Below, in pieces: positions 5,566-35,464 of a stretch of 64,000 nucleotides of DNA. The first letter of the stretch is position 1, and each line of letters starts with the position of its first letter. Both the position numbers and the translations under genes were made by a program. Source of the stretch: a phage. Where the stretch lies: sequence record PQ374922.1. One strand, 5' to 3'. The notes beneath the pieces were generated by a model that had not been told where the DNA came from, searched no databases, and worked only from the letters and a program-made list of their open reading frames with translations.

Positions 5566-6312
5566 ATGGCATCCCTCCAAGATCTACGCAAGCTGAACGA
5601 CTTCGAAAACCGTCATTACACATTCCAGCAATACGAACTTCCTTACAAGGAACTGGAGTGTGTTACGACGGAGAATGGTCGTCATTACGTTTCACCGTCT
5701 GGTGTAAAACTGACATCCGTCACGACTATGCTGGGACGCACTGGAGATCATGAATGGCTTGAGTCTTGGAGGAAGAAGCTGGGCGCAGAGGCCGCTGACC
5801 TTGAGACCATGCGCTGTGCTGACCGAGGGGAGAAGCTGCACCTTGCGTGTGAACTGTATCTAAAGAACCGCCCAATGAAAGAAGTGTTGGAAGCGGCTGG
5901 CGAATACATGTTCATGTTCAAGCAGCTGTTCCCTTACCTGAACAAGATGACAAAGATCTATGCTCAGGAGATCCCATTATATAGCGAGGTGCTTGGTCTT
6001 GCAGGTCGTGTAGACCTTATCGGGGTTTATGAGGGTAAACCTGCTGTCATCGACTTCAAGACATCGAACACCATGAAGACGCGGGGCATGATCGAGGATT
6101 ACAGTATCCAGCTATGCTTATATTCGGTCATGTTCCAGCAGATGTTCGGCGTCAAGATCACCCGCCTCATCAACGTGATCGCCAACGAGTCTTCCCCTCT
6201 ACCAACCGTCATTGAGTTCAACCGTGATGACATTCTGACAAAGATGTTTGAGCGTGTTCGTCTGTATCATCGCATGGATAAAGAACAAAACGGAGTCTGG
6301 CCGGATCACTAA
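5566..6312 (+). CDS. PD-(D/E)xK family exonuclease (RecB/Cas4/lambda-exo-like)
   Basis: Motif GRVDLIGV...VIDFKTS (D...D/E.K core); AGGA RBS. Confidence 0.55.
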   Translation: MASLQDLRKLNDFENRHYTFQQYELPYKELECVTTENGRHYVSPSGVKLTSVTTMLGRTGDHEWLESWRKKLGAEAADLETMRCADRGEKLHLACELYLKNRPMKEVLEAAGEYMFMFKQLFPYLNKMTKIYAQEIPLYSEVLGLAGRVDLIGVYEGKPAVIDFKTSNTMKTRGMIEDYSIQLCLYSVMFQQMFGVKITRLINVIANESSPLPTVIEFNRDDILTKMFERVRLYHRMDKEQNGVWPDH

Positions 6313-6340
6313 ATACCCCATAATCCTTGGGAGATTTTGT

Positions 6341-9327: not shown

Positions 9328-10317
9328 ATGTCTAATATCACAATTGTAAAAGACCAGTATGCATGGGAAAACCGCTTCCGCCCTGACAACCTGGACGAGA
9401 TTATCATCCCTCAAGACGTCCGCGCTAAAATCCATGGCTACATCACCAGCGGCAACGGCAACATCCCGTCTATGCTGTTCTACTCCCCTCAGCCTGGTAC
9501 TGGCAAGACTACCTCCGCCCTGGCCGTGTGTAACGAGATCGGTTGTAAGCAACCACTGATGATCAACGCATCCCTGGACAACAGCATCGACGTTATCCGT
9601 GACCGCGTGATTCAGTACTCTACTGGTGTGAGCGTATTCGGTGGTCGCAAAGTCGTTATCCTCGACGAAGTAGAGCGTCTGTCTATGGCGGCACAGGAGT
9701 CGCTGAAGGGTATTGTGGAGAAGGTCTCCAAGAACTGTTCATTCATCCTGACCACCAACGCCAAGCAACGTGTGAACGAACCTCTGCGCTCTCGTTGCCG
9801 TGAAATCGACTTTATCTGGAATGAGACCGAGGCTGATGAGGTCAAACTTCAGTTCATGCGCCGCTGTGCTGAAATCCTTCGCTGCGAAGGTGTTGAGTAT
9901 GACCCTCCTGTGTTGGCTGCTATTGTCAAGCGCCATTTCCCTGATAACCGCCGCATCATGGGTGTTCTACAGGATAACGTCACCACTTACGGCAAGATCG
10001 ACGAACGTGCACTGGCTGTGTTAAAATCGGCCGATATGGGCATGTTGGTGAATATGTTGAAGGATAATGACTGGGCTGGGATGAAGCAGTGGGTGACCGA
10101 CAACCAGAACTATATCACTGAAGACTTCTATTCCCGCTTCTTCCAGTTCTGTGTACCACAGGATAAAGAGAAGCAAATGTTGGTTCAGAATGAGTCTATC
10201 CCTGATCTGGTATGTGTATGTGGTCAGTCTCAGATTGAACACCGTCAAGTCGGCGATGTCTGGCTGCATGCTGTGTTTTTCCTGACCAATGTCATGCTCA
10301 ACATCAAGTGGAAGTGA
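9328..10317 (+). CDS. clamp loader large subunit, T4 gp44-like AAA+ ATPase
   Basis: Walker A PQPGTGKTT, Walker B VVILDEVE, sensor motifs; 329 aa. Confidence 0.85.
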   Translation: MSNITIVKDQYAWENRFRPDNLDEIIIPQDVRAKIHGYITSGNGNIPSMLFYSPQPGTGKTTSALAVCNEIGCKQPLMINASLDNSIDVIRDRVIQYSTGVSVFGGRKVVILDEVERLSMAAQESLKGIVEKVSKNCSFILTTNAKQRVNEPLRSRCREIDFIWNETEADEVKLQFMRRCAEILRCEGVEYDPPVLAAIVKRHFPDNRRIMGVLQDNVTTYGKIDERALAVLKSADMGMLVNMLKDNDWAGMKQWVTDNQNYITEDFYSRFFQFCVPQDKEKQMLVQNESIPDLVCVCGQSQIEHRQVGDVWLHAVFFLTNVMLNIKWK

Positions 10318-12195: not shown

Positions 12196-13416
12196 ATGAA
12201 AGATAAAGCCCTGGACGTCCCGTACTGCGGTGTCCGTGAAGAAAAGATAAAGTCGGCCAAACCGGTTCTCAGTCCGACCCATACCTGCCTGTCTTACGAA
12301 TGGATGCGCGATCGTTATCAGATCCACGTCAAGAAGGACGTCCAGCGCCTTCCTGCTCCTTGGACTGATAATCCCATATTACGGCAGGTCAAGTTCTGTA
12401 ACGTCCGGAGAGAGCACGACAGGCAGTCTCTCAACCTGATCAACAACATCGTCAACAACGATGCTCTGGGTATGGCCGACAAGATGTTCAACTGCGTGTT
12501 GTTCCGCATGTTCAACCTCTGGGATCCAATCCAGGCTATCGGCGGCGCGATGACGATCAAAGAATTCGCCGAGATCAACCTCGATGCAACCCGCGAACGA
12601 CTTAAGAAGTTCGAGGCCGACGGCGGTAAGGTATTCACCAATGCCTTCAACACGGGCGGCCTGAAACAATGCCTGGCTTTCCCTGAGATGGTTGTCAACC
12701 ACAAGGAGCAGCGCTTCGGTGGGATGATGGTGAATCTGATCTGTAAAGATGGTTCAACCCAGAACATGGATTATAAAGAAGCCAAGGCGATAGCCGAAGC
12801 AGAACCGGACTTCTACACCATCGAAGGTTGGGAACCGTACATGCCAATGCGTGTCATCCGCTCCCTGAAGGCATTCGTCAACAAGTATCCAAATTACTTC
12901 CATGACCTGCTGCGCCTTGGTACTCCTTTGGAAGTATACCAGCGCATGTACGACGACATCGAAGGGCTTGGTCCATTCCTGGCCTATCAGATCTGGGTAG
13001 ACTTCACTTACATTCCTGAATATCCTTTCAGTGAGAACCACTTCACGGTTGCTGGACCAGGCTGTCGCGCAGGGATCGACCTGATGTTCCAGGACAAAGA
13101 TGGCATGACGCATGAAGAATGCATCTTCTGGTTGCGGGACAATCAGGACGCGGTTTATGGCCCTCTTGGGTATAACAGGGAAGAATTTTGGTCTGCGGAA
13201 GAGCCTTGGGATCAGTGTATGAATGTGATGAGCATCGAGAATATGGCATGTGAATTGTCGAAATATACTCGTTGTGTAGAGGCCATACAGCAAGGTAAAA
13301 AACCGCGCGGGAAGGTTGGATATGACGGCGGTGGGGAATACAAAAAGCGCTGTGATGAAGTCGTGCTCAAACGTGGTTCCGTCAATTTGCTGGACCGTTT
13401 GAAGAAACCTGAATAA
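12196..13416 (+). CDS. hypothetical protein (406 aa), candidate nucleic-acid modification enzyme
   Basis: Long ORF after terminator-promoter hairpin; no motif confidently recognised. Confidence 0.6.
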   Translation: MKDKALDVPYCGVREEKIKSAKPVLSPTHTCLSYEWMRDRYQIHVKKDVQRLPAPWTDNPILRQVKFCNVRREHDRQSLNLINNIVNNDALGMADKMFNCVLFRMFNLWDPIQAIGGAMTIKEFAEINLDATRERLKKFEADGGKVFTNAFNTGGLKQCLAFPEMVVNHKEQRFGGMMVNLICKDGSTQNMDYKEAKAIAEAEPDFYTIEGWEPYMPMRVIRSLKAFVNKYPNYFHDLLRLGTPLEVYQRMYDDIEGLGPFLAYQIWVDFTYIPEYPFSENHFTVAGPGCRAGIDLMFQDKDGMTHEECIFWLRDNQDAVYGPLGYNREEFWSAEEPWDQCMNVMSIENMACELSKYTRCVEAIQQGKKPRGKVGYDGGGEYKKRCDEVVLKRGSVNLLDRLKKPE

Positions 13417-17062: not shown

Positions 17063-17917
17063 ATGTTTCGTTTGAAATTGAACGACCAAGATGTGTTCTA
17101 CAAACACTTCACCTTCCCAGGTGGTGAGGAACATATCAAGATTCAAAAGTCTGGTATCCCTATCGGCCACGTTCAGAACGTGGCGATTGATGCTCACATC
17201 AAATCATCGGCTGACTTCATTGAGCTGGCGCTTCTGGTAAACGCCGTTCGTGGTCTGGGTAACGTGGACCGTCTGACGACATTCCATGCGTATATCCCTT
17301 ACTTCCCGTATGCTCGCCAGGACCGCCATTGTGACTTCGGTGAGCCTCTGTCTGTGAAGTGGGCGGCTGAGTTCATCAATAGCATGAACTTTGACCGCGT
17401 GGCGATCAAAGATCCTCACAGCCATGTTGTGTCTTCTCTGATCAACAACGTCCATGTTGTCCCGCAAGATTACATCGTGCGTCAGTATCTGGGCTGGTTC
17501 ATCCGTGGGAACAACGCTGTGTTGGTAGCCCCTGACGGCGGCGCGGCTAAGAAGACCGAAGCCCTCAGTCTGTCGTTGGACGGTGTTCCTGTTGTCTACG
17601 GTCACAAGAACCGTGACACCAAGACTGGTGAGATCATTGGGGTGAGTATTACGAACCCTGAACTGATCAAAGACCGCTATCTGGTGGTGGTCGATGATAT
17701 CTGCGACGGTGGGCGCACGTTCGTTGAGTTAGGCAAAGAGCTTCAGAAGCACAAGCCTAAGCACATGACGCTCTTCGTTACCCATGGCATCTTCAGCAAA
17801 GGTCTCTCTGTTTTCGACGGGATCTATGATGCTGTGTATGCCGACACTGTCTGGTGGGAGAACATCACCGCCGACGGGCTTCCTTTCAAAACTGAAAATA
17901 CAGGACGTGTAAAATGA
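17063..17917 (+). CDS. ribose-phosphate pyrophosphokinase (PRPP synthetase) family; Prs or ADP-ribose pyrophosphokinase (Adps)-like
   Basis: IPYFPYARQDR and PRPP-binding VVVDDICDGGRTF motifs; 284 aa, shorter than cellular Prs. Confidence 0.85.
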   Translation: MFRLKLNDQDVFYKHFTFPGGEEHIKIQKSGIPIGHVQNVAIDAHIKSSADFIELALLVNAVRGLGNVDRLTTFHAYIPYFPYARQDRHCDFGEPLSVKWAAEFINSMNFDRVAIKDPHSHVVSSLINNVHVVPQDYIVRQYLGWFIRGNNAVLVAPDGGAAKKTEALSLSLDGVPVVYGHKNRDTKTGEIIGVSITNPELIKDRYLVVVDDICDGGRTFVELGKELQKHKPKHMTLFVTHGIFSKGLSVFDGIYDAVYADTVWWENITADGLPFKTENTGRVK

Positions 17918-19578
17918 GCATGCGCCACTTAGACCCAATCCATGCGATCGACTTCTACAAATCGGGGCACATCTATCAGTTCCCTGAAGGCAGTGAGCTG
18001 GTGTTCTCCAACGGAACTCCGCGCTCTAACAAACTGTTCAACTCTCACCTGCCGAAGAACGGCGTGGTGGTCTGGGGCATCCAGGGCTTCATGACCTGGT
18101 TCCACGAACTGTTTGACGAAGCATTCTTCCAGCGCCCGAAGGCCAAGGTGCTGAAGAAGTATGCCCGTCGCATGAACAAAGTCCTGGGTCCAGGCCGCGT
18201 CGGCACAGAGCATATTGAAGCCCTGCATGACCTCGGCTACCTGCCTATCGAAGTCCGTGCGCTGCCTGAAGGCACCATGTGTCCGTATGGCGTTCCGGTG
18301 TATGTGATGTTCAATACCCTGCCGGAGTTCTACTGGCTGACCAACTATCTGGAGACTGTGTTCAGCTCTGAGATCTGGAAGCCGATGACGAACGCCACCA
18401 TAGCTCTGCATTACAAGGCACTGATGGTGAAAGCTGCCCTCGCTACGGGAGTATCACCAGACCATTGGTTCATCGACTACCAAGGTCACGACTTCTCCTT
18501 CCGTGGTATGAGCGGGTGGCATGACGCCGCGTCTTCCGGTTCCGGTCATCTGGTGTTCTTCAAAGGCACCGACACCAACCCTGCCCTGGACTTCGTAGAA
18601 GAGTATTATGGCGCAGACATCGACGAAGACTATGTCGTTGCTGGGTCGGTTGCCGCAACGGAACATGCGGTGATGTGTATGGGCACGAAGGATGGTGAAT
18701 TCGAAACCTTCCGCCGCCTGGTGCAGGACGTGTATCCTGATGGCATCGTCAGCATCGTGTCTGATGCGTGGGATTACTGGCAGGTCATCGACGACTATCT
18801 GCCTCGCCTGAAAGACATTATCATGGCGCGCAATGGTAAAGTCGTGATCCGCCCCGACTCGGGCGACCCTGTACACATCGTCGGCGGCTACCGCATCGAG
18901 GGGTTCAAAGACCGCGCTACGCTGAACATCAGCGGCGTGTCTAGCAGCACCGAAGTTATCCACATCGAAGAGACGAACACCTATCACCTGATCACAGGCG
19001 AAGGCACGATCAACTCTCTGATGGCAGATGACCGTAATATCATCAGCCGTTCAGAAGCGGTCGGCTCTATCCAGCGCCTGTGGGAGATCTTTGGTGGCAC
19101 CCAGACTGAAACTGGGCACTTCCTGTTGGATGAGCACATCGGCCTGATCTACGGTGATTCTATCACCCTGGCGCGTGAAGACCAGATCTTTAGCCGTCTG
19201 GCTGACCGGAACTTCGCTTCCATCAACGTGGTGTTCGGTATCGGTTCCTACACCTACCAGATGAACACCCGTGACAGTACTGGCACAGCAGTGAAAGCCA
19301 CGGCTGGTAAAGTGAACGGTGAATTCCGTGAGATCTTCAAAGAGCCGAAGACCGATAAAGGCGGGACTAAAAAGTCTGCGCGTGGTTTCCTTAAAGTCAT
19401 TAAAGACCCTCAGGGTAAACTAGTGTTGGTTGACGGTATCACTTTTGATCAGGTGCAAGACGCCGACAACCAGCACCAGCTGGTGTATCGTGATGGCGAG
19501 TTCTTCAATACTCAAACACTGGAAGATGCGCGTGTTCGTGCTGCTCCTCTGGTGACGGAACTGGCATCACAAATCTGA
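17914..19578 (+). CDS. nicotinamide phosphoribosyltransferase family (NadV/NAMPT or Namat-like)
   Basis: 554-aa ORF translationally coupled to Prs-like gene (ATGA overlap); recognised as NAMPT-type phosphoribosyltransferase by overall sequence pattern. Confidence 0.8.
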   Translation: MSMRHLDPIHAIDFYKSGHIYQFPEGSELVFSNGTPRSNKLFNSHLPKNGVVVWGIQGFMTWFHELFDEAFFQRPKAKVLKKYARRMNKVLGPGRVGTEHIEALHDLGYLPIEVRALPEGTMCPYGVPVYVMFNTLPEFYWLTNYLETVFSSEIWKPMTNATIALHYKALMVKAALATGVSPDHWFIDYQGHDFSFRGMSGWHDAASSGSGHLVFFKGTDTNPALDFVEEYYGADIDEDYVVAGSVAATEHAVMCMGTKDGEFETFRRLVQDVYPDGIVSIVSDAWDYWQVIDDYLPRLKDIIMARNGKVVIRPDSGDPVHIVGGYRIEGFKDRATLNISGVSSSTEVIHIEETNTYHLITGEGTINSLMADDRNIISRSEAVGSIQRLWEIFGGTQTETGHFLLDEHIGLIYGDSITLAREDQIFSRLADRNFASINVVFGIGSYTYQMNTRDSTGTAVKATAGKVNGEFREIFKEPKTDKGGTKKSARGFLKVIKDPQGKLVLVDGITFDQVQDADNQHQLVYRDGEFFNTQTLEDARVRAAPLVTELASQI

Positions 19579-19680: not shown

Positions 19681-19896
19681 ATGATACTGAAAGAATGTTT
19701 TACCGACCTGAAGGCGACGTCTGAAAGTATTCCGGCTTGCATTCAGAACTATGCTCCAAAGGATGTGCTCTTGGCTCAGCTGGAGCAGTCTCGTGAATTT
19801 ATCAACAATATGCTGGACTCTGTAAAGACGCGCATCGAAGCCGCTGATGAGTCTGAACTTAACCCTTACGCACAAGGCGAAGAAAACAATGATTGA
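19681..19896 (+). CDS. hypothetical small protein (71 aa)
   Basis: ORF after terminator; weak RBS. Confidence 0.3.
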   Translation: MILKECFTDLKATSESIPACIQNYAPKDVLLAQLEQSREFINNMLDSVKTRIEAADESELNPYAQGEENND

Positions 19897-22090
19897 ATCA
19901 TTAGAATTTAAGAATGCGGTTGCGACTGCTGCCCCGTCCAACCATGTAATCGTTGTAGACATTTCCGGCTCTATGTACCGTGCGCTCCCTGAAGTCCGCA
20001 AGCACCTGAAGGAGAACCTGCCATCCCTGGTGAAACCGGAAGACACTGTGAGTGTTCTATACTTCTCATCCAAAGGCGACTTTGGTACTGTGTTCGCTGG
20101 CCGTCAGATCAATGCAGCATCCGACCTGAGCGAAATCAACAATCTGATTGACCGCTTCCTGAAACCGTCTGGTTGCACTGGCTTTGTTGAGCCGTTGAAA
20201 CTGGCGATGGACACTGCTCGTGGCCTGAAGAAGCCTGGCTATGTCAACAACCTGGCGTTCATGACTGACGGGTATGACAACTGCTGGCGTACCAACGAAA
20301 TTCTACTGGTTGCTGAGACCCTGCCATTTGCTTTCGATAACATTACATTTATTGAATATGGCTGGTACTGTAACCGCGAACTGCTGGCGCAGATGGCCGA
20401 ACGCTCTGGTGCTACTCACGTGTTTGCCGAAGGTCAGACCGAATACCAGACCGAACTGGAAAACGTGCTGAAGTCATCAGTGCCGAAGGTGAAAGTTGAT
20501 GTCCCAGTCATCTACACCCATGCCATCTACGTCGAAAACGGTGTGGCAACAGTACTGGCGGTGCAGGACGATGACTCTCACCCGGTCGGCTATGTGAGCA
20601 TCCCTGAGAGCATCACCAAGCTGTGGGTTGTAAACCCTAACATGATCGACCAGCTTGATGCGCTGGCGGATATCCAGGCGGCATACGTGCTGGCGTTCTA
20701 CGGCGTACACATCATGGACGCGGACCTGGTGTGGGCTGCACTGAAGAAAACGGGTGACGTTCGCTTCATCAAACAGTACAGCAACTGCTTCACCAAGCAG
20801 GACTACTCCAACATCAAGAACGATCTGGTTCAGGCGATTGTTGACGACCAGCTGCGCGGCGTTGACGGTATTGACTATGACCTGGTTCCGGCTGAAGATG
20901 CGACCACCGTCGTTGATGTGCTGACGTACCTGGCTGAAGCTGGTGTGCCTGTTGCTACCAAGCATCCGATGTTCTCCTATAAGAGCATCGGGCGCGGTAC
21001 TGTGCAGAAAACCGACGACACCGAAGACAAGCTGGCAGAACAGATCGCGAATGCTCAGTCCAAAGAAGAGCGTAAAGCCCTGGCTCTCAAGCTGGCAGAA
21101 CACGAAGAGTGGAACCCGACGTTCGAACCTACCAACGACCTGGGTGTTGTGCCAATCAGCGATTTGGTCTATAACTCCGAGCGCCCGAACATCAGTGTGC
21201 GTACAATTCAACACGGTACTGTGGCTGTGCCTGAATTCGCACAGAAGAAGTTTGGCCTGCCTGAAGAACTGGACACTTTCCAGTGGCGCAACTACACCAT
21301 CGTCAAAGACGGCATCATCAACGTGAAGACTCTGCCGTTCAAGGCTGATATCGAAGTTGTACAGAAGCTGATCGAAATGGGCGTCCACGTGTTTGGTGGT
21401 CCGGAAGTGTTCATCCTGAACCTGGAAAGCGTACCACTGGTCAACCGCGCCATGGTCAAGAACATCAGTGCTGCTCAGTTCTTTGCGGATAATGTCCGTT
21501 TGGAAGCCCTGAAAGGCAAGCAGAAGGTGCTGAAGTTCTATCGAGACGCCCTGGTTGGTAAGGGTAACGCCAAAGGCCTGGCAGTACAGTACGGTGCTGA
21601 GGCGGCCGAGTTCCTGTCCTCCTACGGTATCCGCGATTACGGCTTCTCACCGAAGACTGAGACCAAAGAGTCTACCGACTTCTACATGAGCCGTGAGCTG
21701 AACGTTAAGATCGCCGGGGCGTCTTCACTACCGAGCATCGCGGCAGTACAGAAGAAGATCGCAGAGAATAAGAAACTCAATGCTGGTGACTTGTTTATCG
21801 CCAATGCTCTGAAAGAGTACGAAGCATTCGTGAAGTCTCCTATGATCACTGCCGTGCCTGAAGCCTTACAGAAACAGCTGATCGAAAACTGGATCGACGC
21901 TGCTGCCAAGGCGGCCATCACCGAAGTCCGTGCCCTGAACAAGACACTGTCTAAAGTGGTGTATGGTATCGTTGCTGGCCACGGCTGGTTCACCGACCTC
22001 GACCTGGAAGAGTCCACCATGGAAGTTGAAGTGGATGGCGTGAAGTACAAGGTCACTGCCGAACTGACAGAGAAAGAAATCAAAATCTAA
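19889..22090 (+). CDS. von Willebrand factor A (vWA) domain protein (733 aa)
   Basis: MIDAS motif VIVVDISGSM...FMTDGYDN near N-terminus; internal ATG 19889 chosen. Confidence 0.7.
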   Translation: MIESLEFKNAVATAAPSNHVIVVDISGSMYRALPEVRKHLKENLPSLVKPEDTVSVLYFSSKGDFGTVFAGRQINAASDLSEINNLIDRFLKPSGCTGFVEPLKLAMDTARGLKKPGYVNNLAFMTDGYDNCWRTNEILLVAETLPFAFDNITFIEYGWYCNRELLAQMAERSGATHVFAEGQTEYQTELENVLKSSVPKVKVDVPVIYTHAIYVENGVATVLAVQDDDSHPVGYVSIPESITKLWVVNPNMIDQLDALADIQAAYVLAFYGVHIMDADLVWAALKKTGDVRFIKQYSNCFTKQDYSNIKNDLVQAIVDDQLRGVDGIDYDLVPAEDATTVVDVLTYLAEAGVPVATKHPMFSYKSIGRGTVQKTDDTEDKLAEQIANAQSKEERKALALKLAEHEEWNPTFEPTNDLGVVPISDLVYNSERPNISVRTIQHGTVAVPEFAQKKFGLPEELDTFQWRNYTIVKDGIINVKTLPFKADIEVVQKLIEMGVHVFGGPEVFILNLESVPLVNRAMVKNISAAQFFADNVRLEALKGKQKVLKFYRDALVGKGNAKGLAVQYGAEAAEFLSSYGIRDYGFSPKTETKESTDFYMSRELNVKIAGASSLPSIAAVQKKIAENKKLNAGDLFIANALKEYEAFVKSPMITAVPEALQKQLIENWIDAAAKAAITEVRALNKTLSKVVYGIVAGHGWFTDLDLEESTMEVEVDGVKYKVTAELTEKEIKI

Positions 22091-24503: not shown

Positions 24504-25190
24504 ATGAAACGTTTAATCCTCGGGGTTGTGCTGGCTGGTCTGGCATTACCCGCCGCTGCCAAGCTGAACTCCACAGGTGATAAACTGTGGTCCGACCTTT
24601 CCTATTGTGCTGGGTTCTCCCAGGCGGTTGCCATCGACAAGTCTGGTTCCATAGAGAACTTCGCTGAACTCTGGAACACAGGCAACGTCTCCACTGCTGT
24701 CATCAATGCCGGAATTGAGTTCAACCGTTACAAACAGGGAGCCTATAACCTCAAAGGCTACCTCAATGACGACGAATTTAACCGTGGAGGCATGGAGGCT
24801 GGCGATTTGATCATGACTGGGCGTATGGGCACCCAAGGCCGAATGACCGTAAGACAGTGCCGTTCGCTCCCTTCTCCGGCATTACAGAAGGGTGTGCAGG
24901 TTGGTCGCCGCCACCTGAACCTTATCAACGATGGCAACCAGTGCATCAAAGTATTCGAATACAGCGCTACGCAGACCTCTGATCGCGTCCTGAAGAAGGA
25001 ATGGCGCACCCGCGCTCTTGGTCTCAGAGCCTGGCTGGTTGAGAACGATTATTACTTTGAAGACAGGGTTCAGAACGGTCTGAAAGACCTGGCCACGAAT
25101 CTGAGCGTGAACCTTGATGATCCCCGCATGTCGCGCGAACTCCAGCAGACTCGTGTTGACTGCGACAATATGATGAAGGAGAACGAGTGA
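24504..25190 (+). CDS. secreted protein with signal peptide (228 aa)
   Basis: N-terminus MKRLILGVVLAGLALPAAA; AAGGAG RBS. Confidence 0.55.
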   Translation: MKRLILGVVLAGLALPAAAKLNSTGDKLWSDLSYCAGFSQAVAIDKSGSIENFAELWNTGNVSTAVINAGIEFNRYKQGAYNLKGYLNDDEFNRGGMEAGDLIMTGRMGTQGRMTVRQCRSLPSPALQKGVQVGRRHLNLINDGNQCIKVFEYSATQTSDRVLKKEWRTRALGLRAWLVENDYYFEDRVQNGLKDLATNLSVNLDDPRMSRELQQTRVDCDNMMKENE

Positions 25191-25516
25191 TGAAATGTAA
25201 AATCCTGCTCTTGTTGGTACTGATAGCCGGGTGTGTAAATGCCGCGCCACCGTCTAAACTGAACACATGTGTGGCATGGATGGAGACGTATCAGCAGTTC
25301 CACCCAGATGACAAAGACACATCTATCCTCCTGTCCGACTTCGAGGGGGAGCTGAAGCGCCTTGATCTGTTCAGTGTTGATCAGATAGAGAATGCGCTGG
25401 ATCTTCCCATGATGCTGACTGCGGCTGACAACAGTACACAAACGAAGAAAGACCTGATGTATTGCCGGGGGATTGCCCAGGACTTTGTCGGATTTCAAAA
25501 TAAAGTTTCGGGTTAA
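25190..25516 (+). CDS. predicted lipoprotein (108 aa)
   Basis: Signal peptide with lipobox LIAGC; coupled to upstream gene. Confidence 0.55.
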   Translation: MKCKILLLLVLIAGCVNAAPPSKLNTCVAWMETYQQFHPDDKDTSILLSDFEGELKRLDLFSVDQIENALDLPMMLTAADNSTQTKKDLMYCRGIAQDFVGFQNKVSG

Positions 25517-27668: not shown

Positions 27669-27758
27669 TTCCGCTTTATTCAATAAAATTTGTTAGTTAA
27701 ACTGTAGTCCTCTTGTAGTGAACATGAAAGTAAACATTAACCCAACGGAGAAATCCAG

Positions 27759-28037
27759 ATGAATCGTACTGAATTTGTTGCCCACATTGCTTCGACCCAG
27801 AATATCACCAAAGGCGAAGCGGAGAAAGTAGTGGCATCCTTTATCGACGGTGTTAAAACTGCAGTTGCTGCAGGCGCATCTGTACAGCTGGTCGGCTTCG
27901 GTGCGTTCGAAGTGAAACACCAAGAAGCGCGTGAAGGCCGCAACCCTCTGAACGGCCAGACTATTCAGATCGCGGCGAAAAACGTTGTGAAATTCAAAGT
28001 GGGCGAAGGTCTGAAGAACGCTGCCAACGGCAAGTAA
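27759..28037 (+). CDS. HU/IHF family DNA-binding protein
   Basis: MNRTEFVAHIA...GFGAFEV...RNPLNGQTIQIAAKNVVKFKVG matches HU family; followed by strong terminator. Confidence 0.85.
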   Translation: MNRTEFVAHIASTQNITKGEAEKVVASFIDGVKTAVAAGASVQLVGFGAFEVKHQEAREGRNPLNGQTIQIAAKNVVKFKVGEGLKNAANGK

Positions 28038-28088
28038 TTCTATCTGACGCGCGGCCAGGCTCTGCAATCAGGGCATGGCAAAAGAGAA

Positions 28089-28118
28089 AGCCGGAGTACA
28101 ATGCTCCGGCTTTTTCGT
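28089..28118 (+). terminator. rho-independent terminator after HU gene
   Basis: agccggag-tacaatg-ctccggct followed by ttttt. Confidence 0.75.
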
Positions 28119-28165
28119 TCTTGGGGATCGGGTAAACTATAGGCGAATCCCATAGGAGGAAGAAA

Positions 28166-29884
28166 GTGACAGCATTCAACCAATATACCAAGGCGCTTGA
28201 CGGCGTCGGACCAGTCAGCATAGACCGCATCAAGTCTCTTGCCACTGAGTTCTTCCCGTATGACACCGCCAACCCCGGCCAGATGGAATGCATCGTTGAA
28301 GCCATTGATGCCCTTGTGAATAAGAAATTCAAACACGTGATCATCGAGGCTCCGACTGGTGTGGGTAAATCCCTCATCGGCACTACCATCCATAACGTGC
28401 TTCGCCATTTGGTTCTTGAGCACAACCCGTATGGTCAGTTCCGCACGTCTATCACGACGCCGACCAAAGGTTTACAGGATCAGTATGCAGCAGAGAAAGC
28501 CGTGACGATAGACATCCTGAAGGGCAAGAAGAACTACCGTTGCCACATCAGTCCCGACCTATACTACAACGCCATTCAGTGCCGTATGGCATGCCGTGAT
28601 GGCCACTGTAGTAAGAATCGTTGCCCATATGTTCAGGCGCGTAGACAGTGGACCGACGTCTCCTCCCTGCGCTGCACCAACGCCGCCATGATGGTGGAGA
28701 TGTGTACGACGATTTGTATGAAGCCGGAAAACCGTGCCGATATGCTGATCCTTGACGAGTGTCATAAGATGCCCTCTACGCTCCTAGAGCATACTATCAT
28801 GGAATACAACATAAAGGCTGTGGAAGGGTTGCTTACGATCCCCGAGGGAGTGCCTATCGTGGAGACCATCAAGGATATCATCATCCGCACAGATAACTAT
28901 GAATTGGGCAAGCTGTATTCCCTGTCTGGTGAGATGCATGCGATATTTGATGAACTGCACGGCAAGGTTGAAGCCCTGTTGGAAACTCTTGAGGAACTGG
29001 TAGAGGACGAGCGCCTGACTGAAGCCCAGGTGATGAAGCTGTCTGATATTATTGATACTCTTCACAACCTCAGCGACTACTGTGGTATCATGGGGCAGAC
29101 CAACGCCAGCACTTTCATCGTACAGGAGAAGGACAAGGGTATGATTCAGTTCAAGCCTGTCATCGCCTCTGATGTATCCCAGTTCGGCCTGTTCCGCAAG
29201 GGTGACTACCACGTTCACATGTCGGCTACCATTTGCGGGATTGACTCGTACGCCCGGTCACTGGGTATCCGCGAGGGTGAGTACCACAAGATACAGATCG
29301 GCAACCCTATCCCGATTGAGAACCGGAAAGTCAACTACATGCCCATCATGAAGATGACAGCGAACATGGGTGACTACGAGATGAAGAAGCTGGCTGAATA
29401 CGTGGATGAAATTATCGCGTTCCACCCTGGGCAGTCTGGCATCATTCACACAGTCAGTTATGACCGCGCCCTGGCTCTACAAAAGTTCAGTAAGTACCGG
29501 AATATGATTCACGTTCCTCGTACTCGTAAGGCTCTGATGGACATCATGGAACACGCGTTCAGGACGAAGACACCTTGTGTCATCGCCAGTCCGTCCATGG
29601 AAGAGGGGTATGACTTCAAAGGCGATTATAGTCGATTTCAGATCTTGATCAAGGTGCCATATGATTACCTTGGTGATCCTCTGGTGGCCCACGTCAACAG
29701 TGTGGACCCATCGGCGTACTTCAGGATGGCGGTACTGCGTATCGTTCAGATGTGTGGGCGTTCGGTCAGGGGCGTGAATGACTGGGCTGCGACGTACATC
29801 CTTGATTCTTCTTTTGAATCACTGATGATGCGCAACCCAGAGTTCTTCCCCGCTTGGTTCACTGATGCCGTGTTTGAGGTTTAG
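28166..29884 (+). CDS. DinG/XPD-like Fe-S cluster SF2 DNA helicase
   Basis: GTG start after AGGAGGA; Walker A EAPTGVGKS, DECH box ILDECHKM, four-Cys cluster between them. Confidence 0.7.
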   Translation: MTAFNQYTKALDGVGPVSIDRIKSLATEFFPYDTANPGQMECIVEAIDALVNKKFKHVIIEAPTGVGKSLIGTTIHNVLRHLVLEHNPYGQFRTSITTPTKGLQDQYAAEKAVTIDILKGKKNYRCHISPDLYYNAIQCRMACRDGHCSKNRCPYVQARRQWTDVSSLRCTNAAMMVEMCTTICMKPENRADMLILDECHKMPSTLLEHTIMEYNIKAVEGLLTIPEGVPIVETIKDIIIRTDNYELGKLYSLSGEMHAIFDELHGKVEALLETLEELVEDERLTEAQVMKLSDIIDTLHNLSDYCGIMGQTNASTFIVQEKDKGMIQFKPVIASDVSQFGLFRKGDYHVHMSATICGIDSYARSLGIREGEYHKIQIGNPIPIENRKVNYMPIMKMTANMGDYEMKKLAEYVDEIIAFHPGQSGIIHTVSYDRALALQKFSKYRNMIHVPRTRKALMDIMEHAFRTKTPCVIASPSMEEGYDFKGDYSRFQILIKVPYDYLGDPLVAHVNSVDPSAYFRMAVLRIVQMCGRSVRGVNDWAATYILDSSFESLMMRNPEFFPAWFTDAVFEV

Positions 29885-30648
29885 TAACCCGCAACGAAGG
29901 ACAGATGGCACTTGACATTCGGTTCCAACGACGTCACAGAAACCGTCATATTGTCCGTATCTTGGCTGAAGTCAATGGTGGCGAGAGGTTTGGTCTGAAT
30001 ATGGTTGTATACACTGTAGATCAGATCCTCGCCACGATACCCTACCTTCCCGTCTGTGTCTTGCCAATGACCCAGTGTCTCATCGTAGACATGCACTCTG
30101 AACTCGATCATATGGAAGAGTGCCTTGGGGATGTCCTTGAGTACGCTGGTGCCAACCACGGGAATCTCTATGCTGGAATCATTAGAGTTCCCTTCATAGA
30201 CCGAAGCCCATGCAAAGGTAGGATCACCCCCAGCAACAGGGGTTCGCTTCCAGTATTGGAATTCTGGGTTGCCTGAAGCGTTCTTCTGAAGTAGAATGAC
30301 CTCACCACCTTTGAAGTTCGAGGTATCGATGTCGCCTCGCTGAAGTTCATCTGCTGGAGATCCAATAAATTTCCAGCCTTCGCGATCCAGTAAAGACTTA
30401 TAATAGTCGGTGAACACGTTGCTGTCTTCTGCATCGTTGATGGCATCTTTGAGACCTTGGCCTGTCACCATCTCGTTGAGCTTCAACCACATGTTCTTGA
30501 CAGCAGAAGCTGCTGCGACTTGTCCAGCAGTCCCACCTGCAGCATAATCATAGATGATATCTTCTGACTTGATAGCATCATAGATAGAGAGGAGCAATTG
30601 CTCAATCTGCGGGGCGGTGAGACTGAAACGATATGCGCGGGGTGCCAT
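29881..30648 (-). CDS. hypothetical protein (255 aa), minus strand
   Basis: Internal ATG with GAGGAATG RBS; convergent with helicase gene; ORF track extension to 30807 would overlap RNase H start. Confidence 0.5.
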   Translation of the reverse strand: MAPRAYRFSLTAPQIEQLLLSIYDAIKSEDIIYDYAAGGTAGQVAAASAVKNMWLKLNEMVTGQGLKDAINDAEDSNVFTDYYKSLLDREGWKFIGSPADELQRGDIDTSNFKGGEVILLQKNASGNPEFQYWKRTPVAGGDPTFAWASVYEGNSNDSSIEIPVVGTSVLKDIPKALFHMIEFRVHVYDETLGHWQDTDGKVGYRGEDLIYSVYNHIQTKPLATIDFSQDTDNMTVSVTSLEPNVKCHLSFVAGY

Positions 30649-30693
30649 AGTTTCATTCCTCTTTCTATAAAACCAGTTTGGGATATTTATATC

Positions 30694-31221
30694 ATGATAG
30701 AAATTTATTCTGACGGGGGTTCTAACCCGAAGACCAACCAGGCCGCAGGCTGGGCATTTGTCATCAGGCCAATAACGGGTATGCAATGGAAGGTGTTCTT
30801 CGGTCATCTACCTCCCCCGTCCACTAACAATATCGCCGAGTTGTTGGGTGTGACCAACGCATTGAAGCTACTGTGGGCATTCTCAGGAAAGGGTGAGCGC
30901 AGAATACCAAAGGCAACAATTTGGTCTGACAGCCAATATGCCATCAAGAGTGTCACCGAATGGCGAACGAAGTGGGAGTATCAGGGTTTCCCAGAAAAGA
31001 ACGTTGAACTCATCAAAGATCTGTTCAGAATCTATGATCTCGTTTGTTCAATTTGTGATGTTGAACTAAAATGGGTTAAGGGTCATGCGGGACACGAAGG
31101 CAACGAACTTGCCGATGACTGGGCTACAGCAGCCAAAAACGACAGCAACTTCCTGATTGAGAATGACAAGATCTCGGTGAAGAAGGTTGTTGGATCTTTT
31201 GATGAATTTATCGGTATCTGA
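30694..31221 (+). CDS. ribonuclease HI
   Basis: IYSDGGS, TNNIAEL, SDSQY, KWVKGHAGHEGNELADDWA motifs as in E. coli RNase HI. Confidence 0.85.
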   Translation: MIEIYSDGGSNPKTNQAAGWAFVIRPITGMQWKVFFGHLPPPSTNNIAELLGVTNALKLLWAFSGKGERRIPKATIWSDSQYAIKSVTEWRTKWEYQGFPEKNVELIKDLFRIYDLVCSICDVELKWVKGHAGHEGNELADDWATAAKNDSNFLIENDKISVKKVVGSFDEFIGI

Positions 31222-31232
31222 GGACTATCATA

Positions 31233-32024
31233 ATGGGAATGAACTTCGTGGACAGAGGGGAGAATGTCGTCAAATATTTCACGGACGAAGACAACGAGCG
31301 TGTCATTAGTATCCTTCGTGATTGGATCCCTGCTCGCAAGAAAGCACTTGCTGAGGGCACCAGGCTTCCAAAGATCCCCAACTATGTTGCTCTGCAGGTC
31401 CAGCGCATCATCACCAAGATGAGTACCCGCTACAACTATCGCGATTATCCCTTCCGTGAAGACATGGTCTCTGAAGCAATAGTCAACATCTTGCGCTACC
31501 TCCACACATTTGACGTCGAACACATTGGAAAGAAAGGGAAGATCAACTTCTTCTCTTGGGTGACCATGTGTGCTGATCGATCATTCGCTCGTAAACTGAA
31601 TATCGAAGAAGAGCACACGTACATTAAATTGCGCTCATTTGAAGAGGCGGGTGGGTTCGCAGGCCTGGCAGACGATCCCGACTTCCAACAAGAGGTCTTT
31701 GTTGATGCTACAGGAATTGGCATGGACTTCCGTGAACGTATCGGCAACTTTGAGAACAAAAAGGACGCTCAAAGGCAGAAGGAGCGAGAGAAGGTGGAGG
31801 CAGCTCGTCTCGCAGAATCGAATAAAAAGATTGCGAAAGGCATACTTCAATACATGGCGCAGGCTAAGAATACGGTAACAGCGCAGGCCGAAGACAATTC
31901 AGATCAAGACTTCGGCAAAACCCAATTCAATCTGGAAGATGATATCTGTGCGATGGAACCAGATTGGGAAGCCCTCAAACAAAGATTAGAAGAACGGGAG
32001 AAAAAGAACAATGGCGATTGCTAA
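31233..32024 (+). CDS. late-transcription sigma factor, T4 gp55-like
   Basis: Pattern similarity to T4 gp55 as recalled (ISILRDWIP, central helical region); precedes gp47/gp46 as in T4. Confidence 0.65.
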   Translation: MGMNFVDRGENVVKYFTDEDNERVISILRDWIPARKKALAEGTRLPKIPNYVALQVQRIITKMSTRYNYRDYPFREDMVSEAIVNILRYLHTFDVEHIGKKGKINFFSWVTMCADRSFARKLNIEEEHTYIKLRSFEEAGGFAGLADDPDFQQEVFVDATGIGMDFRERIGNFENKKDAQRQKEREKVEAARLAESNKKIAKGILQYMAQAKNTVTAQAEDNSDQDFGKTQFNLEDDICAMEPDWEALKQRLEEREKKNNGDC

Positions 32025-33126
32025 AATTGGCGATCTGCATATCGGGAGCCGTAATGGTTCTCGATACGTTCGCGACTTCATCAAGAACTATCTCATCAAT
32101 TATTTCATTCCTGAACTTGCCGACTCTGATATCAAAGAGGTCTGGCAGTTCGGTGATACGTTTGATGTCCGCAAATTCATGTACGGTCGTGACAAAGACT
32201 GGCTGAAGGATGAACTCACCCCTGCGTTGAAAGCGGCTGGTATCAAGTGGAATGGCATCGTGGGCAACCATGATATCACCCTGGAAGAGTCCAACCGCAT
32301 CAACTGGCCATCCTACCTGAACGAACTCGACCCGGATGTGTACTGCTATTACAGCGAACCGACCGAAGTGATGATCGAGGGTGTCAAGACTCTGCTGCTG
32401 CCTTGGATCAACAAGGAGAACTATGATGCGTCTATTAAAGCGATACAAGATACAGACGCCGAGTACTGTTTTGCGCATCTGGAGCTGGCGGGGTTCAAAA
32501 TGTATCAGTCTTCTACTTGTGATCACGGTCAGATCGACGTTGCTCTGCTTTCCAAGTTTACCAGAGTCGACACGGGTCATTTCCATACCCGTTCGATGGA
32601 AGGTAACATTCAATATATTGGGACTCCATATCACCTGAACTGGGAAGACTACAAAGACGGTACCAACCGTGGCTTCTATGTGGACGACATGCGTGGTGGT
32701 GAGATCTTTATCCCGAACGCCGAGCACCAGACGCTGTTCCGCTATGTGGAATATGATTACACCAAGTTGTCCTCTGATGAAGAAGGTAATTGGATCGACC
32801 CGGAATGGTTGAACACAGGCTTGGGTATTGAAGGGCAAATTGTTAAGGTTATTGTACAGAACCGTGACAATGCTAAGCATTATGAAAAGTTCTATGATGC
32901 CATGAAGCGCTGTAAGTGCATTGACTACAACTTCATCGACCGGACGATTACTGTTGCTGCCGAGAAGGTTGAGGTCACCGAAGAGATGGTGGCGACCGAT
33001 GCGGTGGAAGTCCTGAAGAAGGATATCCGCGCCGGGAACAACATTCAGCGCCCCGACAATGTCTGTAAACTGGCAGAGCACTTCTATAATGCTGCCCAAC
33101 AACGCCTGAACAAACTGGATGCATAA
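32011..33126 (+). CDS. recombination nuclease subunit, Mre11/SbcD-like (T4 gp47-like)
   Basis: Calcineurin-like phosphoesterase motifs GDLHIG, GNHD, GHFH. Confidence 0.85.
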   Translation: MAIAKIGDLHIGSRNGSRYVRDFIKNYLINYFIPELADSDIKEVWQFGDTFDVRKFMYGRDKDWLKDELTPALKAAGIKWNGIVGNHDITLEESNRINWPSYLNELDPDVYCYYSEPTEVMIEGVKTLLLPWINKENYDASIKAIQDTDAEYCFAHLELAGFKMYQSSTCDHGQIDVALLSKFTRVDTGHFHTRSMEGNIQYIGTPYHLNWEDYKDGTNRGFYVDDMRGGEIFIPNAEHQTLFRYVEYDYTKLSSDEEGNWIDPEWLNTGLGIEGQIVKVIVQNRDNAKHYEKFYDAMKRCKCIDYNFIDRTITVAAEKVEVTEEMVATDAVEVLKKDIRAGNNIQRPDNVCKLAEHFYNAAQQRLNKLDA

Positions 33127-35464
33127 CATGACTCAGAGCACAGATATCTTGACCAAATTTGGTAATCTTTTGAAGGAAGCCGACGCCCCGGTCGAGGTTG
33201 AAGTCCCATTTGAAGTGCGTAACGTTGTTACACACAAACTGACCTTCCGCAAAGGCCGCGCCAAGAACTTCCGCTCCATCGGCAATCAGTTCATGGAGAT
33301 TGATTATCAGCGCAACCCGGCCACCCTTGTTACGTCTGATGACAACGGCGCGGGTAAATCCACGATGCTGGTATGGCTGCTGTTTTTCGTACTGTACAAC
33401 GACACATACAGCAAGAAGGAGAAGAAGGCAGGTCTGGTTAACTCACAGAGCCGCAAGGAATGTGTGGGTGAGGTGGAGTTTGCCTGCCGTGGTAGCGAAT
33501 GGAAGGTTCGCCGTGGCATTAAACCTGACTTTGTTGAAGTCTACCAGATGGTGGACGGCAAGTGGTTGCAGATCGATAACGAAGCAGCCAAAGCCGACAT
33601 GAACAAGTACATCGTGAACCTCATCGGCGTGGACCAGAAGATGTTTGAGAACTCTCTGGTGCTGGGCAAAGAGAAGTTCATTCCGTTCACGGAGATGTAC
33701 ACAGCCGACCGCCGCGCCATGGTGGAGACTATCTGGGACTTGGGCTTCTTCAGCCTGATGAACGAAGATGTCAAGGCTGCCATCAAGAAAGCGAACGAAA
33801 AGCTGGACACGATAGCGAATGAATGTGCGTTGAAGGTTGTTGACCGCACCAACAAGAAGACGCAGCTACAGCAGATAGAGCGGTCCAATGCCCTTATCCA
33901 ACAGCAGTCGGCCGATATCCTTGTACAGCAACAGGAAGCCCTGACTTCCCTAGACGCTGACATCGCCGCCCAGAATGAAGAGCGCACCCGCCTCACGGCT
34001 GTGGAGTTTGAAGCCACCCAGGAAATGAAGACGGTAGAAAGCCGCCTGCATGATGAATCCATGGTGGAGATCGAGGCTGTCAAGAAAGACTTTGATGCCA
34101 AGATCCAGGCGGTGAAGGACGCCGCGCAGGACAAGGCTGACGATTATGAGCGCATCGAAGTGTCTACTGCGGAGCATGATCTTCAGGTCTTGCGTGACCG
34201 CGCCTTTACAGTGGCCGAACGCAAGAACACCCTGCTCACCGAGCGCAACACAAACCTGGACACCCTGAACGCTGCTATTCAGCGCCGCCAGCAGGGTGAG
34301 AACTTCCGTATCAAGTTCCAGACTGAAATGGAGGGGCATCAGTCGGCCATCAAGCGCTTCCACGATATGGGGACTTGCCCAACATGTACCCAACTGGTGT
34401 CTGATGACACCAAGGCGCGGATTGAGAGTGAGTACAATCCTCGGATCCAGGAACTACAGTCGAAGTTAGATCAACTGGACAAAGTTACCGCCGATATCAA
34501 TGTCCTGATCGATGATCACAAGGCTCAGGACGACAAGCTGGTTGCTGACATTGCTGTGTTGGATGCTGAACTGGATGCCATGCGCAAGCAGGCCGACGAA
34601 ATCGTTGACAACATCAAGCAGCTGCGCCGTGATATTCAAGGTTTTCATGATGCCGCCACGATTGAGTGTAATTCGCTGAACCGTGAATGCCAACAGAAGA
34701 TCCTTGACATCCGTAAGGCACTGAACGTTCGTTTTGAAGATATCACTGCTTCGCTGCAACAGACGCGAGAGAATGCCGTCAGCGGGATTAAAGCCGTCGA
34801 TGATAAGATCGCCGAGCTGAAAGTCCGTCGTGCTCCTCTCGTGGCGTCTATTGCCGATCTGGAGCGTAAACTGGCTGTACAGCCAACACCTACCACCGAC
34901 CTGGAGAACTCTATCGCTGCGTTGGAAGGTGAACTGGAGGCTCTGTATGAACTCCGTGAAGATGCAGATGAGGAACTCCAGGACTTACAGCACCTGCTGT
35001 TCTTCTTGAAGGATGACCAGACCAAGGCGCGTATCATCTCCCTGTACTTGCCATTCCTCAATAGCAAGATCAACGAGTATCTTGAAGCCCTCAACATGTT
35101 CTTGGACATCGTTGTTGACGATACCTTTGAGATCACCATGAGCGCAGCAGGTCGCAAAGGACAGAGTATCTTCTCCCTGTCTACTGGCCAGCGCAGTCGT
35201 CTGAACCTGGCTGTAACATTAGCTCTGCGCGATGTGGCTAACCTCAAGGCATCGGTGCAATGTAACCTGTTTGTCCTGGACGAAATCCTTGAGAACATGA
35301 GCGAGCGCGGGGTGCAGGAATCGGTTGAGATGTTGAAGCATAAGTTCGGCGGGAACAACCTGTTTGTTATTAGCCAGCGCGAACAGGAGTTCCAGGAATA
35401 CTTCCAACACAACATTCGCTACGGCCTGCGAAACGGCCTGACTGAAGTCATCAAGAAGGATTGA
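33119..35464 (+). CDS. recombination ATPase subunit, Rad50/SbcC-like (T4 gp46-like)
   Basis: Walker A DDNGAGKST, long coiled coil with CPTC zinc hook, signature LSTGQRSRL, Walker B LFVLDE. Confidence 0.85.
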   Translation: MHNMTQSTDILTKFGNLLKEADAPVEVEVPFEVRNVVTHKLTFRKGRAKNFRSIGNQFMEIDYQRNPATLVTSDDNGAGKSTMLVWLLFFVLYNDTYSKKEKKAGLVNSQSRKECVGEVEFACRGSEWKVRRGIKPDFVEVYQMVDGKWLQIDNEAAKADMNKYIVNLIGVDQKMFENSLVLGKEKFIPFTEMYTADRRAMVETIWDLGFFSLMNEDVKAAIKKANEKLDTIANECALKVVDRTNKKTQLQQIERSNALIQQQSADILVQQQEALTSLDADIAAQNEERTRLTAVEFEATQEMKTVESRLHDESMVEIEAVKKDFDAKIQAVKDAAQDKADDYERIEVSTAEHDLQVLRDRAFTVAERKNTLLTERNTNLDTLNAAIQRRQQGENFRIKFQTEMEGHQSAIKRFHDMGTCPTCTQLVSDDTKARIESEYNPRIQELQSKLDQLDKVTADINVLIDDHKAQDDKLVADIAVLDAELDAMRKQADEIVDNIKQLRRDIQGFHDAATIECNSLNRECQQKILDIRKALNVRFEDITASLQQTRENAVSGIKAVDDKIAELKVRRAPLVASIADLERKLAVQPTPTTDLENSIAALEGELEALYELREDADEELQDLQHLLFFLKDDQTKARIISLYLPFLNSKINEYLEALNMFLDIVVDDTFEITMSAAGRKGQSIFSLSTGQRSRLNLAVTLALRDVANLKASVQCNLFVLDEILENMSERGVQESVEMLKHKFGGNNLFVISQREQEFQEYFQHNIRYGLRNGLTEVIKKD

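Follow-up and report, generated by a model that had tools for sequence, protein, structure and literature searches.

We analyzed two adjacent genes, one for a helicase and one for an HU-like protein, in a 64,000-nucleotide (nt) stretch of phage DNA (sequence record PQ374922.1; referred to as the window, with coordinates collected in Table 1). The helicase is an uncharacterised, virus-specific member of a well-known helicase family, and it stands beside an ordinary phage HU. An earlier note on this DNA, made from the sequence alone, had described the pair as an HU homolog and a DinG/XPD-type helicase with an iron-sulfur (Fe-S) cluster inside a T4-like replication module.

The helicase and its four-cysteine module

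That the helicase belongs to the XPD/Rad3/DinG branch of superfamily 2 (SF2) is practically certain, and the DinG affiliation suggested in the earlier note was borne out by profile and structure searches alike. When a profile made from 25 homologs was aligned with E. coli DinG by hhalign, a probability of 99.3% was obtained over 508 columns (E = 1e-20). Pfam, NCBIfam, PHROG and generic-DinG PADLOC profiles all match the protein, among them Helicase_C_2 (PF13307; 48 bits against a cut-off of 25.3), ResIII and DEAD from Pfam and phrog_2488 (E = 9e-260), and a phmmer search of the PDB returned E. coli DinG first. The SF2 core is present (Walker A, a DExH-type Walker B and QxxGRxxR). Its key residues are essentially invariant in the 25 homologs and in two larger sets used throughout, one of 81 proteins from IMG/VR loci (24-99% identity) and one of 136 representatives of 50%-identity clusters (25-39% identity), which together with the query made a MAFFT alignment of 137 sequences.

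An AlphaFold2 model calculated on the 25-homolog alignment (predicted local distance difference test, pLDDT, 88.4; predicted template modelling score, pTM, 0.87) and its Foldseek matches give an architecture of helicase domain 1 (HD1) with a small cysteine module (about residues 116-160), an Arch-like insertion, and helicase domain 2 (HD2); two RecA-like domains are counted in all. The insertion occupies the position of the DinG Arch region in the profile alignment and, in the secondary structure of the model, holds a long helical hairpin (helices 255-279 and 286-311). The best 44 Foldseek matches in the PDB are all DinG, XPD, CasDinG or Hna, led by E. coli DinG (6fws; E = 2e-26, TM score 0.65) and Thermoplasma acidophilum XPD (E = 8.5e-24); RecQ and other helicases appear only beyond E = 1e-10.

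One PADLOC profile, PDLC01439 ("typeIV_DinG"), is matched over its full length (174 bits, E = 1e-51), and the defence helicase Hna is among the structural matches, so we considered a DinG of the kind associated with type IV CRISPR (clustered regularly interspaced short palindromic repeats), that is, a Csf4-like protein, or another defence or anti-defence component. Such an identity is barely credible and effectively refuted. E. coli chromosomal DinG scores 515 bits on PDLC01439, three times higher than the phage protein, and hence this is a generic DinG profile; genuine Csf4 models gave at most 25 bits, neighbouring genes have no PADLOC matches and none is cas-like, no tandem repeats or repeat arrays were found at 20-36 kb, and the gene context is one of replication and recombination. 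CasDinG/Csf4 of type IV-A systems is itself a compact DinG-like helicase of similar length, carried on mobile elements, and matches structurally (E = 7e-20); its FeS domain is reported to be vestigial (PMC10450177), whereas the phage helicase keeps all four cysteines and has no CRISPR context.

Within the XPD/DinG family, the best structural and sequence match is E. coli DinG (PDB 6FWR/6FWS), whose fold, like that of its paralog YoaA, is the SF2 XPD/DinG fold of the phage protein. DinG and the phage protein also have in common motifs I, II (DExH) and VI, the CP[YF]xxxRR hallmark and Fe-S cysteines between Walker A and Walker B (three of four aligned), and 5'-3' polarity and an accessory role would be expected of both. 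Identity is, however, about 16-22%, and the phage protein is 144 amino acids (aa) shorter than DinG (716 aa). XPD/Rad3 proteins (T. acidophilum XPD, 9p55/2vsf; human XPD in TFIIH) share the four-domain plan (HD1, FeS, Arch, HD2), with Foldseek values of E = 8.5e-24 to 1e-18, and likewise carry Helicase_C_2, but their cysteine spacing is different, and the phage has no TFIIH or nucleotide excision repair partner genes.

The GTG start after a strong ribosome-binding site, as read in the earlier note, is well supported. It is kept in 8/8 relatives inspected, a GGAGG or GGAG together with the GTG is conserved in relatives, no alternative start codon occurs before M40, and conserved FP[FY] and GQ motifs of the N terminus lie upstream of M40.

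Eight cysteines lie between Walker A and DECH. Four of them form the site that the earlier note had placed here, in DinG/XPD fashion: C126 (81/81 IMG/VR proteins; 137/137 in the cluster-representative alignment), C139 (75/81; 128/137), C148 (80/81; 128/137) and C153 (79/81; 137/137). Retention is thus 93-100% across more than 200 homologs, a result opposite to the loss of cysteines in homologs that the note had named as fatal to its proposal, and because the four are conserved the Fe-S prediction stands. Y155 is found in 80/81 IMG/VR proteins, and the remaining cysteines of the helicase (C42, C143, C170, C180, C184, C306, C357, C471 and C530) are retained in just 7-73 sequences. Aligned by hhalign, C126, C148 and C153 correspond to C120, C199 and C205 of E. 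coli DinG, which are, together with C194, the ligands of its cluster. The flanking hallmarks GKxNYxC and CPYxxxR are common to the phage helicase, DinG and FANCJ. What defines the family is a set of four cysteines, placed between Walker A and Walker B, whose [4Fe-4S] cluster is required for unwinding (PMC3378879). The phage helicase, as predicted from sequence, very probably holds a real Fe-S cluster, and C126, C139, C148 and C153 would most likely hold it, as [4Fe-4S], in a compact module of HD1.

Next to DinG, where the ligands cover 86 residues (positions 120-205), the module is unusually short, with its four cysteines inside 28 residues, and DinG's roughly 55-residue insert between the first and second ligands is missing, with the second ligand probably shifted to C139. 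So short a span would also suit four cysteines that bind zinc or are purely structural, a metal knuckle merely shaping the wedge, and the cluster has been lost in some family members, such as CasDinG with its vestigial FeS domain (PMC10450177). We consider a zinc or purely structural site improbable, since CxxC pairs typical of zinc ribbons are absent, the first and last cysteines sit inside G[KR]xNYxC and CPYxxxR, hallmarks of the proven Fe-S helicases DinG and FANCJ, and the module occupies the homologous position between motifs Ia and II (PMC3378879).

Several observations weigh against the assignment of the protein as a DinG/XPD-type Fe-S helicase. DEAD_2 (PF06733), the usual N-terminal signature of Rad3/XPD, found no match in the helicase by Pfam search (the homolog P0062 carries it), and NCBIfam scores are far below the DinG, YoaA and rad3 cut-offs (PRK11747, 69 against 598 bits; NF053712, 57.9 against 680; TIGR00604 rad3, 23.5 against 247). 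DinG C194 is paired with C143, which is not conserved, and not with C139, the cysteine kept across the family, which makes the second ligand ambiguous; the Fe-S region has the lowest confidence of the model (pLDDT 75-77); and no biochemical or genetic data on members of the clade were found in the literature searched. Because DEAD_2 is unmatched and the NCBIfam scores are so low, we regard the helicase as a divergent clade and not as an ortholog of DinG or YoaA. The second ligand is probably, with some uncertainty, C139, since it is conserved in the family and lies one helical turn upstream of C143.

Distribution and possible role of the helicase

In tblastn searches 498 phage records were matched by the helicase. 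They cover all enterobacterial Ackermannviridae, 157-kb Vibrio phages (~45% identity) and Rhizobium and Agrobacterium phages; the gene is also present in Aeromonas phiA8-29, Acinetobacter SH-Ab 15599 and Delftia PhiW-14 (40%), and distant matches, to the C-terminal half only, came from haloarchaeal tailed viruses, Bacillus phage G, XacN1 and Lak phages. A hidden Markov model scan of 1.84 billion cluster representatives gave 4,245 matches at E <= 1e-30, the best 150 of which are nearly all 500-650 aa long. When one genome for each of 185,579 prokaryotic species was scanned with clade-specific peptide patterns, which are uninformative on cellular DinG in general, only 8 helicase loci were detected, all on contigs of metagenome-assembled genomes. 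Hence the clade is essentially viral and hardly represented in cellular genomes, and the helicase differs from DinG also in being encoded by a phage.

Both genes already carry annotations. Existing records call the helicase "DNA helicase" or "ATP-dependent helicase"; in Klebsiella phage PWKp5 it is labelled "dinG" and in haloviruses "Rad3-related DNA helicase", and the HU is recorded as "HU-beta". BFVD contains structure predictions for viral relatives, one of them entered as "DinG Rad3-related DNA helicases". The earlier note was right that helicase and HU are real, and the surprise that it implied was overstated, both genes being conserved across Ackermannviridae and known to annotators. Indeed, since they are annotated in hundreds of genomes, our results refine annotation and are no discovery in that respect. 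In the literature searched, we found no dedicated study of a phage or Ackermannviridae DinG-like or Fe-S helicase, of its Fe-S site, or of the HU; a 2024 review of Ackermannviridae mentions neither protein, and a review from 2026 on Fe-S proteins in viruses and in nucleic-acid metabolism refers to bacteriophage once, in a reference on tail-tip proteins related to lambda gpL. The helicase is of value mainly because it offers a tractable candidate for an Fe-S helicase encoded by a phage; no characterised example came up in that literature. Should the cluster be real, the protein would provide a minimal model of the Fe-S/Arch wedge in a viral Fe-S helicase that is small and easy to express, and the replication of a therapeutically used phage family would be tied to host iron-sulfur assembly.

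Phage T4 has three DNA helicases, gp41, UvsW and Dda. The 97%-identical Escherichia phage AV101 has annotated homologs of gp41 and UvsW. For T4 Dda, searches of the window and of the whole AV101 genome gave no homolog (best E = 0.89, where Walker A of PhoH was matched), and neither did a search of PhiW-14, an independent phage bearing the helicase (best E = 0.95). The contrast drawn in the earlier note with the Fe-S-free helicases of T4 holds for the accessory helicase Dda, which is indeed missing here. Distant homologs of the phage helicase adjoin genes for gp47-like SbcD (three loci), UvsW, gp44, gp32 and primase. All characterised Fe-S helicases unwind DNA 5'-3', and DinG is an accessory helicase thought to remove R-loops or RNA polymerase ahead of forks (PMC3378879).

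On these grounds, and with no T4 late-promoter motif upstream of the gene, a general role of the helicase in replication or recombination is likely. By analogy with every characterised Fe-S helicase, we infer that the protein would translocate 5'-3' on single-stranded DNA, the Fe-S/Arch region acting as a strand-separating wedge. It would presumably be an accessory helicase in T4-type recombination-dependent replication, where it may open D-loops, R-loops and forks, displace proteins in front of the fork, or assist gp46/47 in processing DNA ends. Because Dda is missing, the gene context is one of replication and recombination, and Fe-S helicases and Dda both move 5'-3', we propose that it might fill the niche of the superfamily 1B (SF1B) helicase Dda in T4. 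This more specific proposal is tentative. It draws on two lineages and gene context, and the absence of Dda points to a free niche but not to its occupant. Dda, like the proposed phage counterpart, is a non-replicative accessory helicase of a T4-type replication/recombination system and is missing where the phage helicase is present (AV101, PhiW-14); the two proteins are, however, not homologous, Dda belongs to SF1B and has no Fe-S cluster, and it would be a functional analogue only. Were the proposal true, it would show how T4-type replisomes cope without Dda. A wider claim, which we think unlikely as it stands, is that these minimal Fe-S helicases with four cysteines inside 28 residues, a large clade confined in essence to viruses (about 4,200 clusters at 50% identity, E <= 1e-30), replaced Dda as accessory 5'-3' helicase in the T4-type replisomes of Ackermannviridae, PhiW-14-like and other large phages, and that the protein would be the first phage helicase shown to depend on host Fe-S assembly, possibly also on redox state, perhaps with adaptation to hypermodified DNA.

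The window also encodes a 5-hydroxymethyldeoxyuridine (5-hmdU) DNA kinase, the marker enzyme of thymidine hypermodification (PMC5889632). In Ackermannviridae about 40% of T is replaced by 5-(2-aminoethoxy)methyldeoxyuridine (5-NeOmdU; PMC11721090), and because the window carries the kinase gene its DNA is predicted to contain bases of the 5-NeOmdU type. The helicase, and perhaps the HU, could then be specialised for such DNA, the former opening the duplex for modification enzymes or unwinding 5-NeOmdU DNA that host helicases handle poorly, the latter preferring modified DNA as a protein like TF1 of phage SPO1. Several observations fit. In PhiW-14 (L022) a weak match resembling 5-HMUDK (E = 3e-5) follows ~500 nt downstream of the helicase gene gp070 (L096 11702-13312), locus L021 has a strong 5-HMUDK homolog (E = 1e-66) ~3.5 kb downstream of the helicase, and SPO1, another phage with hydroxymethyluracil in its DNA, encodes the HU homolog TF1, some records labelling the phage HU "transcription factor 1". 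From the sequence of these two loci, it is possible that the helicase clade is tied to hypermodification. A specialisation of the helicase or HU for hypermodified DNA is nevertheless rather improbable: five ViI genes, none of them for a helicase, rebuild the modification in vitro (PMC5889632); the clade extends to haloarchaeal tailed viruses, Bacillus phage G, Lak and Rhizobium phages and is present in many phages for which no thymine modification is known; the HU resembles bacterial HU/IHF more than TF1 and differs from TF1 in length (92 against 99 aa); and PhiW-14 has hypermodified T and no HU.

The HU gene and its relation to the helicase gene

The HU open reading frame (ORF) matches Pfam Bac_DNA_binding (PF00216) over its full length (positions 1-90 of 90; 103.8 bits against a cut-off of 22.4, E = 6e-30) as well as phrog_379 (E = 4e-36), and residues R58, R61, N62 and P63 of the beta-arm (R-x-x-R-N-P motif) can be read from its sequence. 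A PDB search returned bacterial HU and IHF at E = 1e-21 to 1e-18 and SPO1 TF1 at E = 4e-11. Scores are below every NCBIfam HU/IHF equivalog cut-off (IHF-alpha, the best, 72.9 against 111; HU-beta, 69.7 against 157). Across enterobacterial Ackermannviridae the protein is 75-100% identical. We conclude that this gene is an ordinary, divergent homolog of phage HU/nucleoid proteins, in agreement with the earlier note, which had also assigned it a terminator of its own. Its product probably acts as a dimeric DNA bender of the HU family, a general architectural protein on phage DNA. Compared with bacterial HU/IHF and TF1 taken together, it has the full-length signature of the HU fold in common with them and differs in the failure to reach any equivalog cut-off and in being phage-encoded with its own terminator.

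The name "transcription factor 1" in some records might suggest an ortholog of SPO1 TF1, a candidate that we rejected: TF1 is a weaker match than any bacterial HU, its 99-aa chains have a C-terminal extension, and at the arm position where the phage HU has R61 it carries F61. In the part of the AV101 genome that lies outside the window, a second gene (24960-25460 of AV101; 166 aa) is annotated "putative histone-like protein", so that phages of this family may have a further protein of the nucleoid type besides the HU.

The 93-nt intergenic stretch between HU and helicase (28038-28130) folds as RNA with -40.4 kcal/mol (z = -4.3; 0/200 shuffles as good), and the terminator hairpin was also recovered by a consensus scan. 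In relatives the stem covaries (GCCGAGG/CCTCGGC, GCCGGGG/CCCCGGC, CCCCGC/GCGGGG) and the T-run is kept; these compensatory changes are good comparative evidence that the hairpin is a real intrinsic terminator.

A 10-mer, TAAACTNTAG, occurs in exactly two copies in the 64 kb (0.18 expected; 1/100 shuffles reaches 2), one upstream of each gene. Around the HU-upstream copy the block CGCTTTATTCAATA..TTTGTTAG[G/T]TAA[A/G]CTGTAGTCCTCTTGTAGTGAA is kept in relatives down to 65% helicase identity, and the helicase-upstream element is kept as GG[G/T]TAAACTA[T/A]A in Agtrevirus-, Kuttervirus- and Taipeivirus-like loci. To judge from the sequence, the two copies, both in blocks conserved across genera of Ackermannviridae, may belong to two promoters as their -10-like elements (TAnnnT) or represent an operator common to both genes. 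A sigma-70 promoter scan gave nothing convincing directly upstream of HU or helicase. As a genome-wide phage promoter motif TAAACTNTAG was rejected: there are the two copies, and the looser TAARCTNTA is not enriched (3 against 1.6 expected). The HU gene would probably be transcribed under its own promoter-like element and end at the conserved terminator. Because of this terminator and the possible separate promoter-like element before each gene, independent expression of HU and helicase can be argued from the sequence.

The T4 late-promoter motif TATAAATA is found upstream of neither gene. Its two exact copies in the window, 30684-30691 (-) and 59937-59944 (-), each lie ~35 nt upstream of a minus-strand gene. 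Records of some relatives list the product of the first (29881-30648) as a virion protein or a putative structural protein; that of the second (58958-59902) matches the gp54-like baseplate hub gene of AV101. This placement fits gp55-dependent late transcription, gp55 being encoded in the window.

Downstream, the TAG that closes the helicase gene (29882-29884) overlaps the TAA that closes the convergent gene (29881-29883, -), a gene overlap of 4 nt that leaves no room for a terminator between them. This convergent minus-strand ORF is listed as 308 aa, and relatives annotate a 255-aa product from about 30648 (phrog_3833, function unknown). The RNase H ORF that follows (30598-31221, +) opens with TTG at 30598 and is 207 aa long; relatives annotate 175 aa with a start near 30694, which would also clear the divergent late promoter at 30684-30691.

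HU and helicase are adjacent and on the same strand in 12/12 enterobacterial Ackermannviridae loci, and the rare 10-mer upstream of both starts could mean co-regulation. The earlier note had proposed that the two act in combination, in replication restart, R-loop handling or genome packaging; HU would then bend or mark DNA and load or direct the helicase. We find such a functional pair quite improbable. The conserved intrinsic terminator separates the genes, and HU was found within 6 kb in 0/69 of the more distant helicase loci. The whole 157-kb genome of PhiW-14, with a helicase at 40% identity, has no HU (best E = 0.52). Vibrio phage YC keeps the order helicase, convergent gene, RNase H, gp55, gp47, gp46 and has no HU in the 6-kb flanks of the helicase; a gp32 homolog lies ~3.4 kb upstream. 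Vibrio phages, with helicases of ~45% identity, are also outside the ten most frequent organism names among the HU matches. Thus adjacency is limited to the 12 close loci, and HU-helicase as a conserved module was rejected. Nothing points to packaging: neither gene is linked to terminase or packaging genes, which are far away in AV101.

Genome setting and other features

The window phage is a Vi1-like, Agtrevirus-like member of Ackermannviridae and not a T4-type phage (Straboviridae), as the earlier note had framed it. Over the 4-kb region it is 99% identical to Escherichia phage YX22, 98.5% to vB_EcoM-RPN242 (classified as Ackermannviridae, Aglimvirinae) and 93% to Shigella phage Ag3, and megablast of this region gave 181 matches, to Salmonella, Klebsiella, Dickeya, Escherichia and Shigella phages of about 150-160 kb. 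The T4-like replication/recombination module noted around both genes is there, with gp45, gp44/62, UvsW, RNase H, gp55, gp47/46, gp61 and gp32. RNase H, gp55 and gp47 were confirmed in the window along with the Pfam-supported genes of Table 1; gp45 (sliding clamp), gp62, regA and primase are annotated in the stretch of AV101 syntenic with the window, and AV101 is further annotated with gp41, gp59, UvsX, UvsY, gp43, ligase and topoisomerase. A composition scan showed no anomaly that would point to recent horizontal acquisition. Taken as a whole, our best explanation, which we consider likely, is that of two independent, vertically inherited genes of an Ackermannviridae phage, one for a general DNA-bending protein and one for a compact Fe-S helicase with an accessory role in replication.

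Table 1. Coordinates of genes, motifs and signals in the window
Feature	Coordinates	Strand	Remarks
DinG/XPD-family SF2 helicase, 572 aa	28166-29884	+	GTG start
Shine-Dalgarno AGGAGG	28154-28159	+	6 nt before GTG of the helicase
Walker A (motif I) APTGVGKS, residues 62-69	28349-28372	+	T64, G65, G67, K68 in 81/81 homologs
Predicted [4Fe-4S] module C126-X12-C139-X8-C148-X4-C153-P-Y	28541-28630	+	Non-conserved C143 also inside
Walker B (motif II) DECH, residues 197-200	28754-28765	+	D197, E198 in 81/81 and 137/137; H200 in 136/137
Arch-like insertion, about residues 212-335	28799-29170	+	Between motif II and HMSATICG (351-358); boundaries approximate
Motif VI QMCGRSVR, residues 528-535	29747-29770	+	Q528, G531, R532, R535 invariant in alignment A1
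HU-family DNA-bending protein, 92 aa	27759-28037	+	ATG start; GGAG at 27747-27750, 8 nt upstream
TAAACTGTAG, candidate -10-like (TAnnnT) promoter element	27698-27707	+	61 nt upstream of HU start codon
Second, smaller hairpin	28052-28079		
Intrinsic terminator 3' of HU	28084-28121	+	Hairpin 28084-28116, stem GCCGGAG/CTCCGGC extended by A/T pairs, then TTTTTCGTTCTT
TAAACTATAG, candidate separate promoter element	28133-28142	+	33 nt before helicase start; second copy of the 10-mer
UvsW	6248-7849		Pfam
gp44	9328-10317		Pfam
5-hmdU DNA kinase	12196-13416	+	PF18723, 273 bits
gp55	31233-32024		
gp46	33119-35464		Pfam
gp32	57909-58931		Pfam

Rfam gave no RNA families in the window. ORF 17914-19578 (+) matches Pfam NAPRTase (111.9 bits), and together with ORF 17063-17917 (+) it is syntenic with the AV101 genes for ribose-phosphate pyrophosphokinase and nicotinamide phosphoribosyltransferase; a salvage pair of this kind for nicotinamide adenine dinucleotide (NAD+) is thought to counter NAD-depleting defence systems (PMC11721090). 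Finally, 19847-22090 (+) encodes a 747-aa protein, hypothetical in relatives, with an N-terminal von Willebrand factor A domain at residues 34-198.

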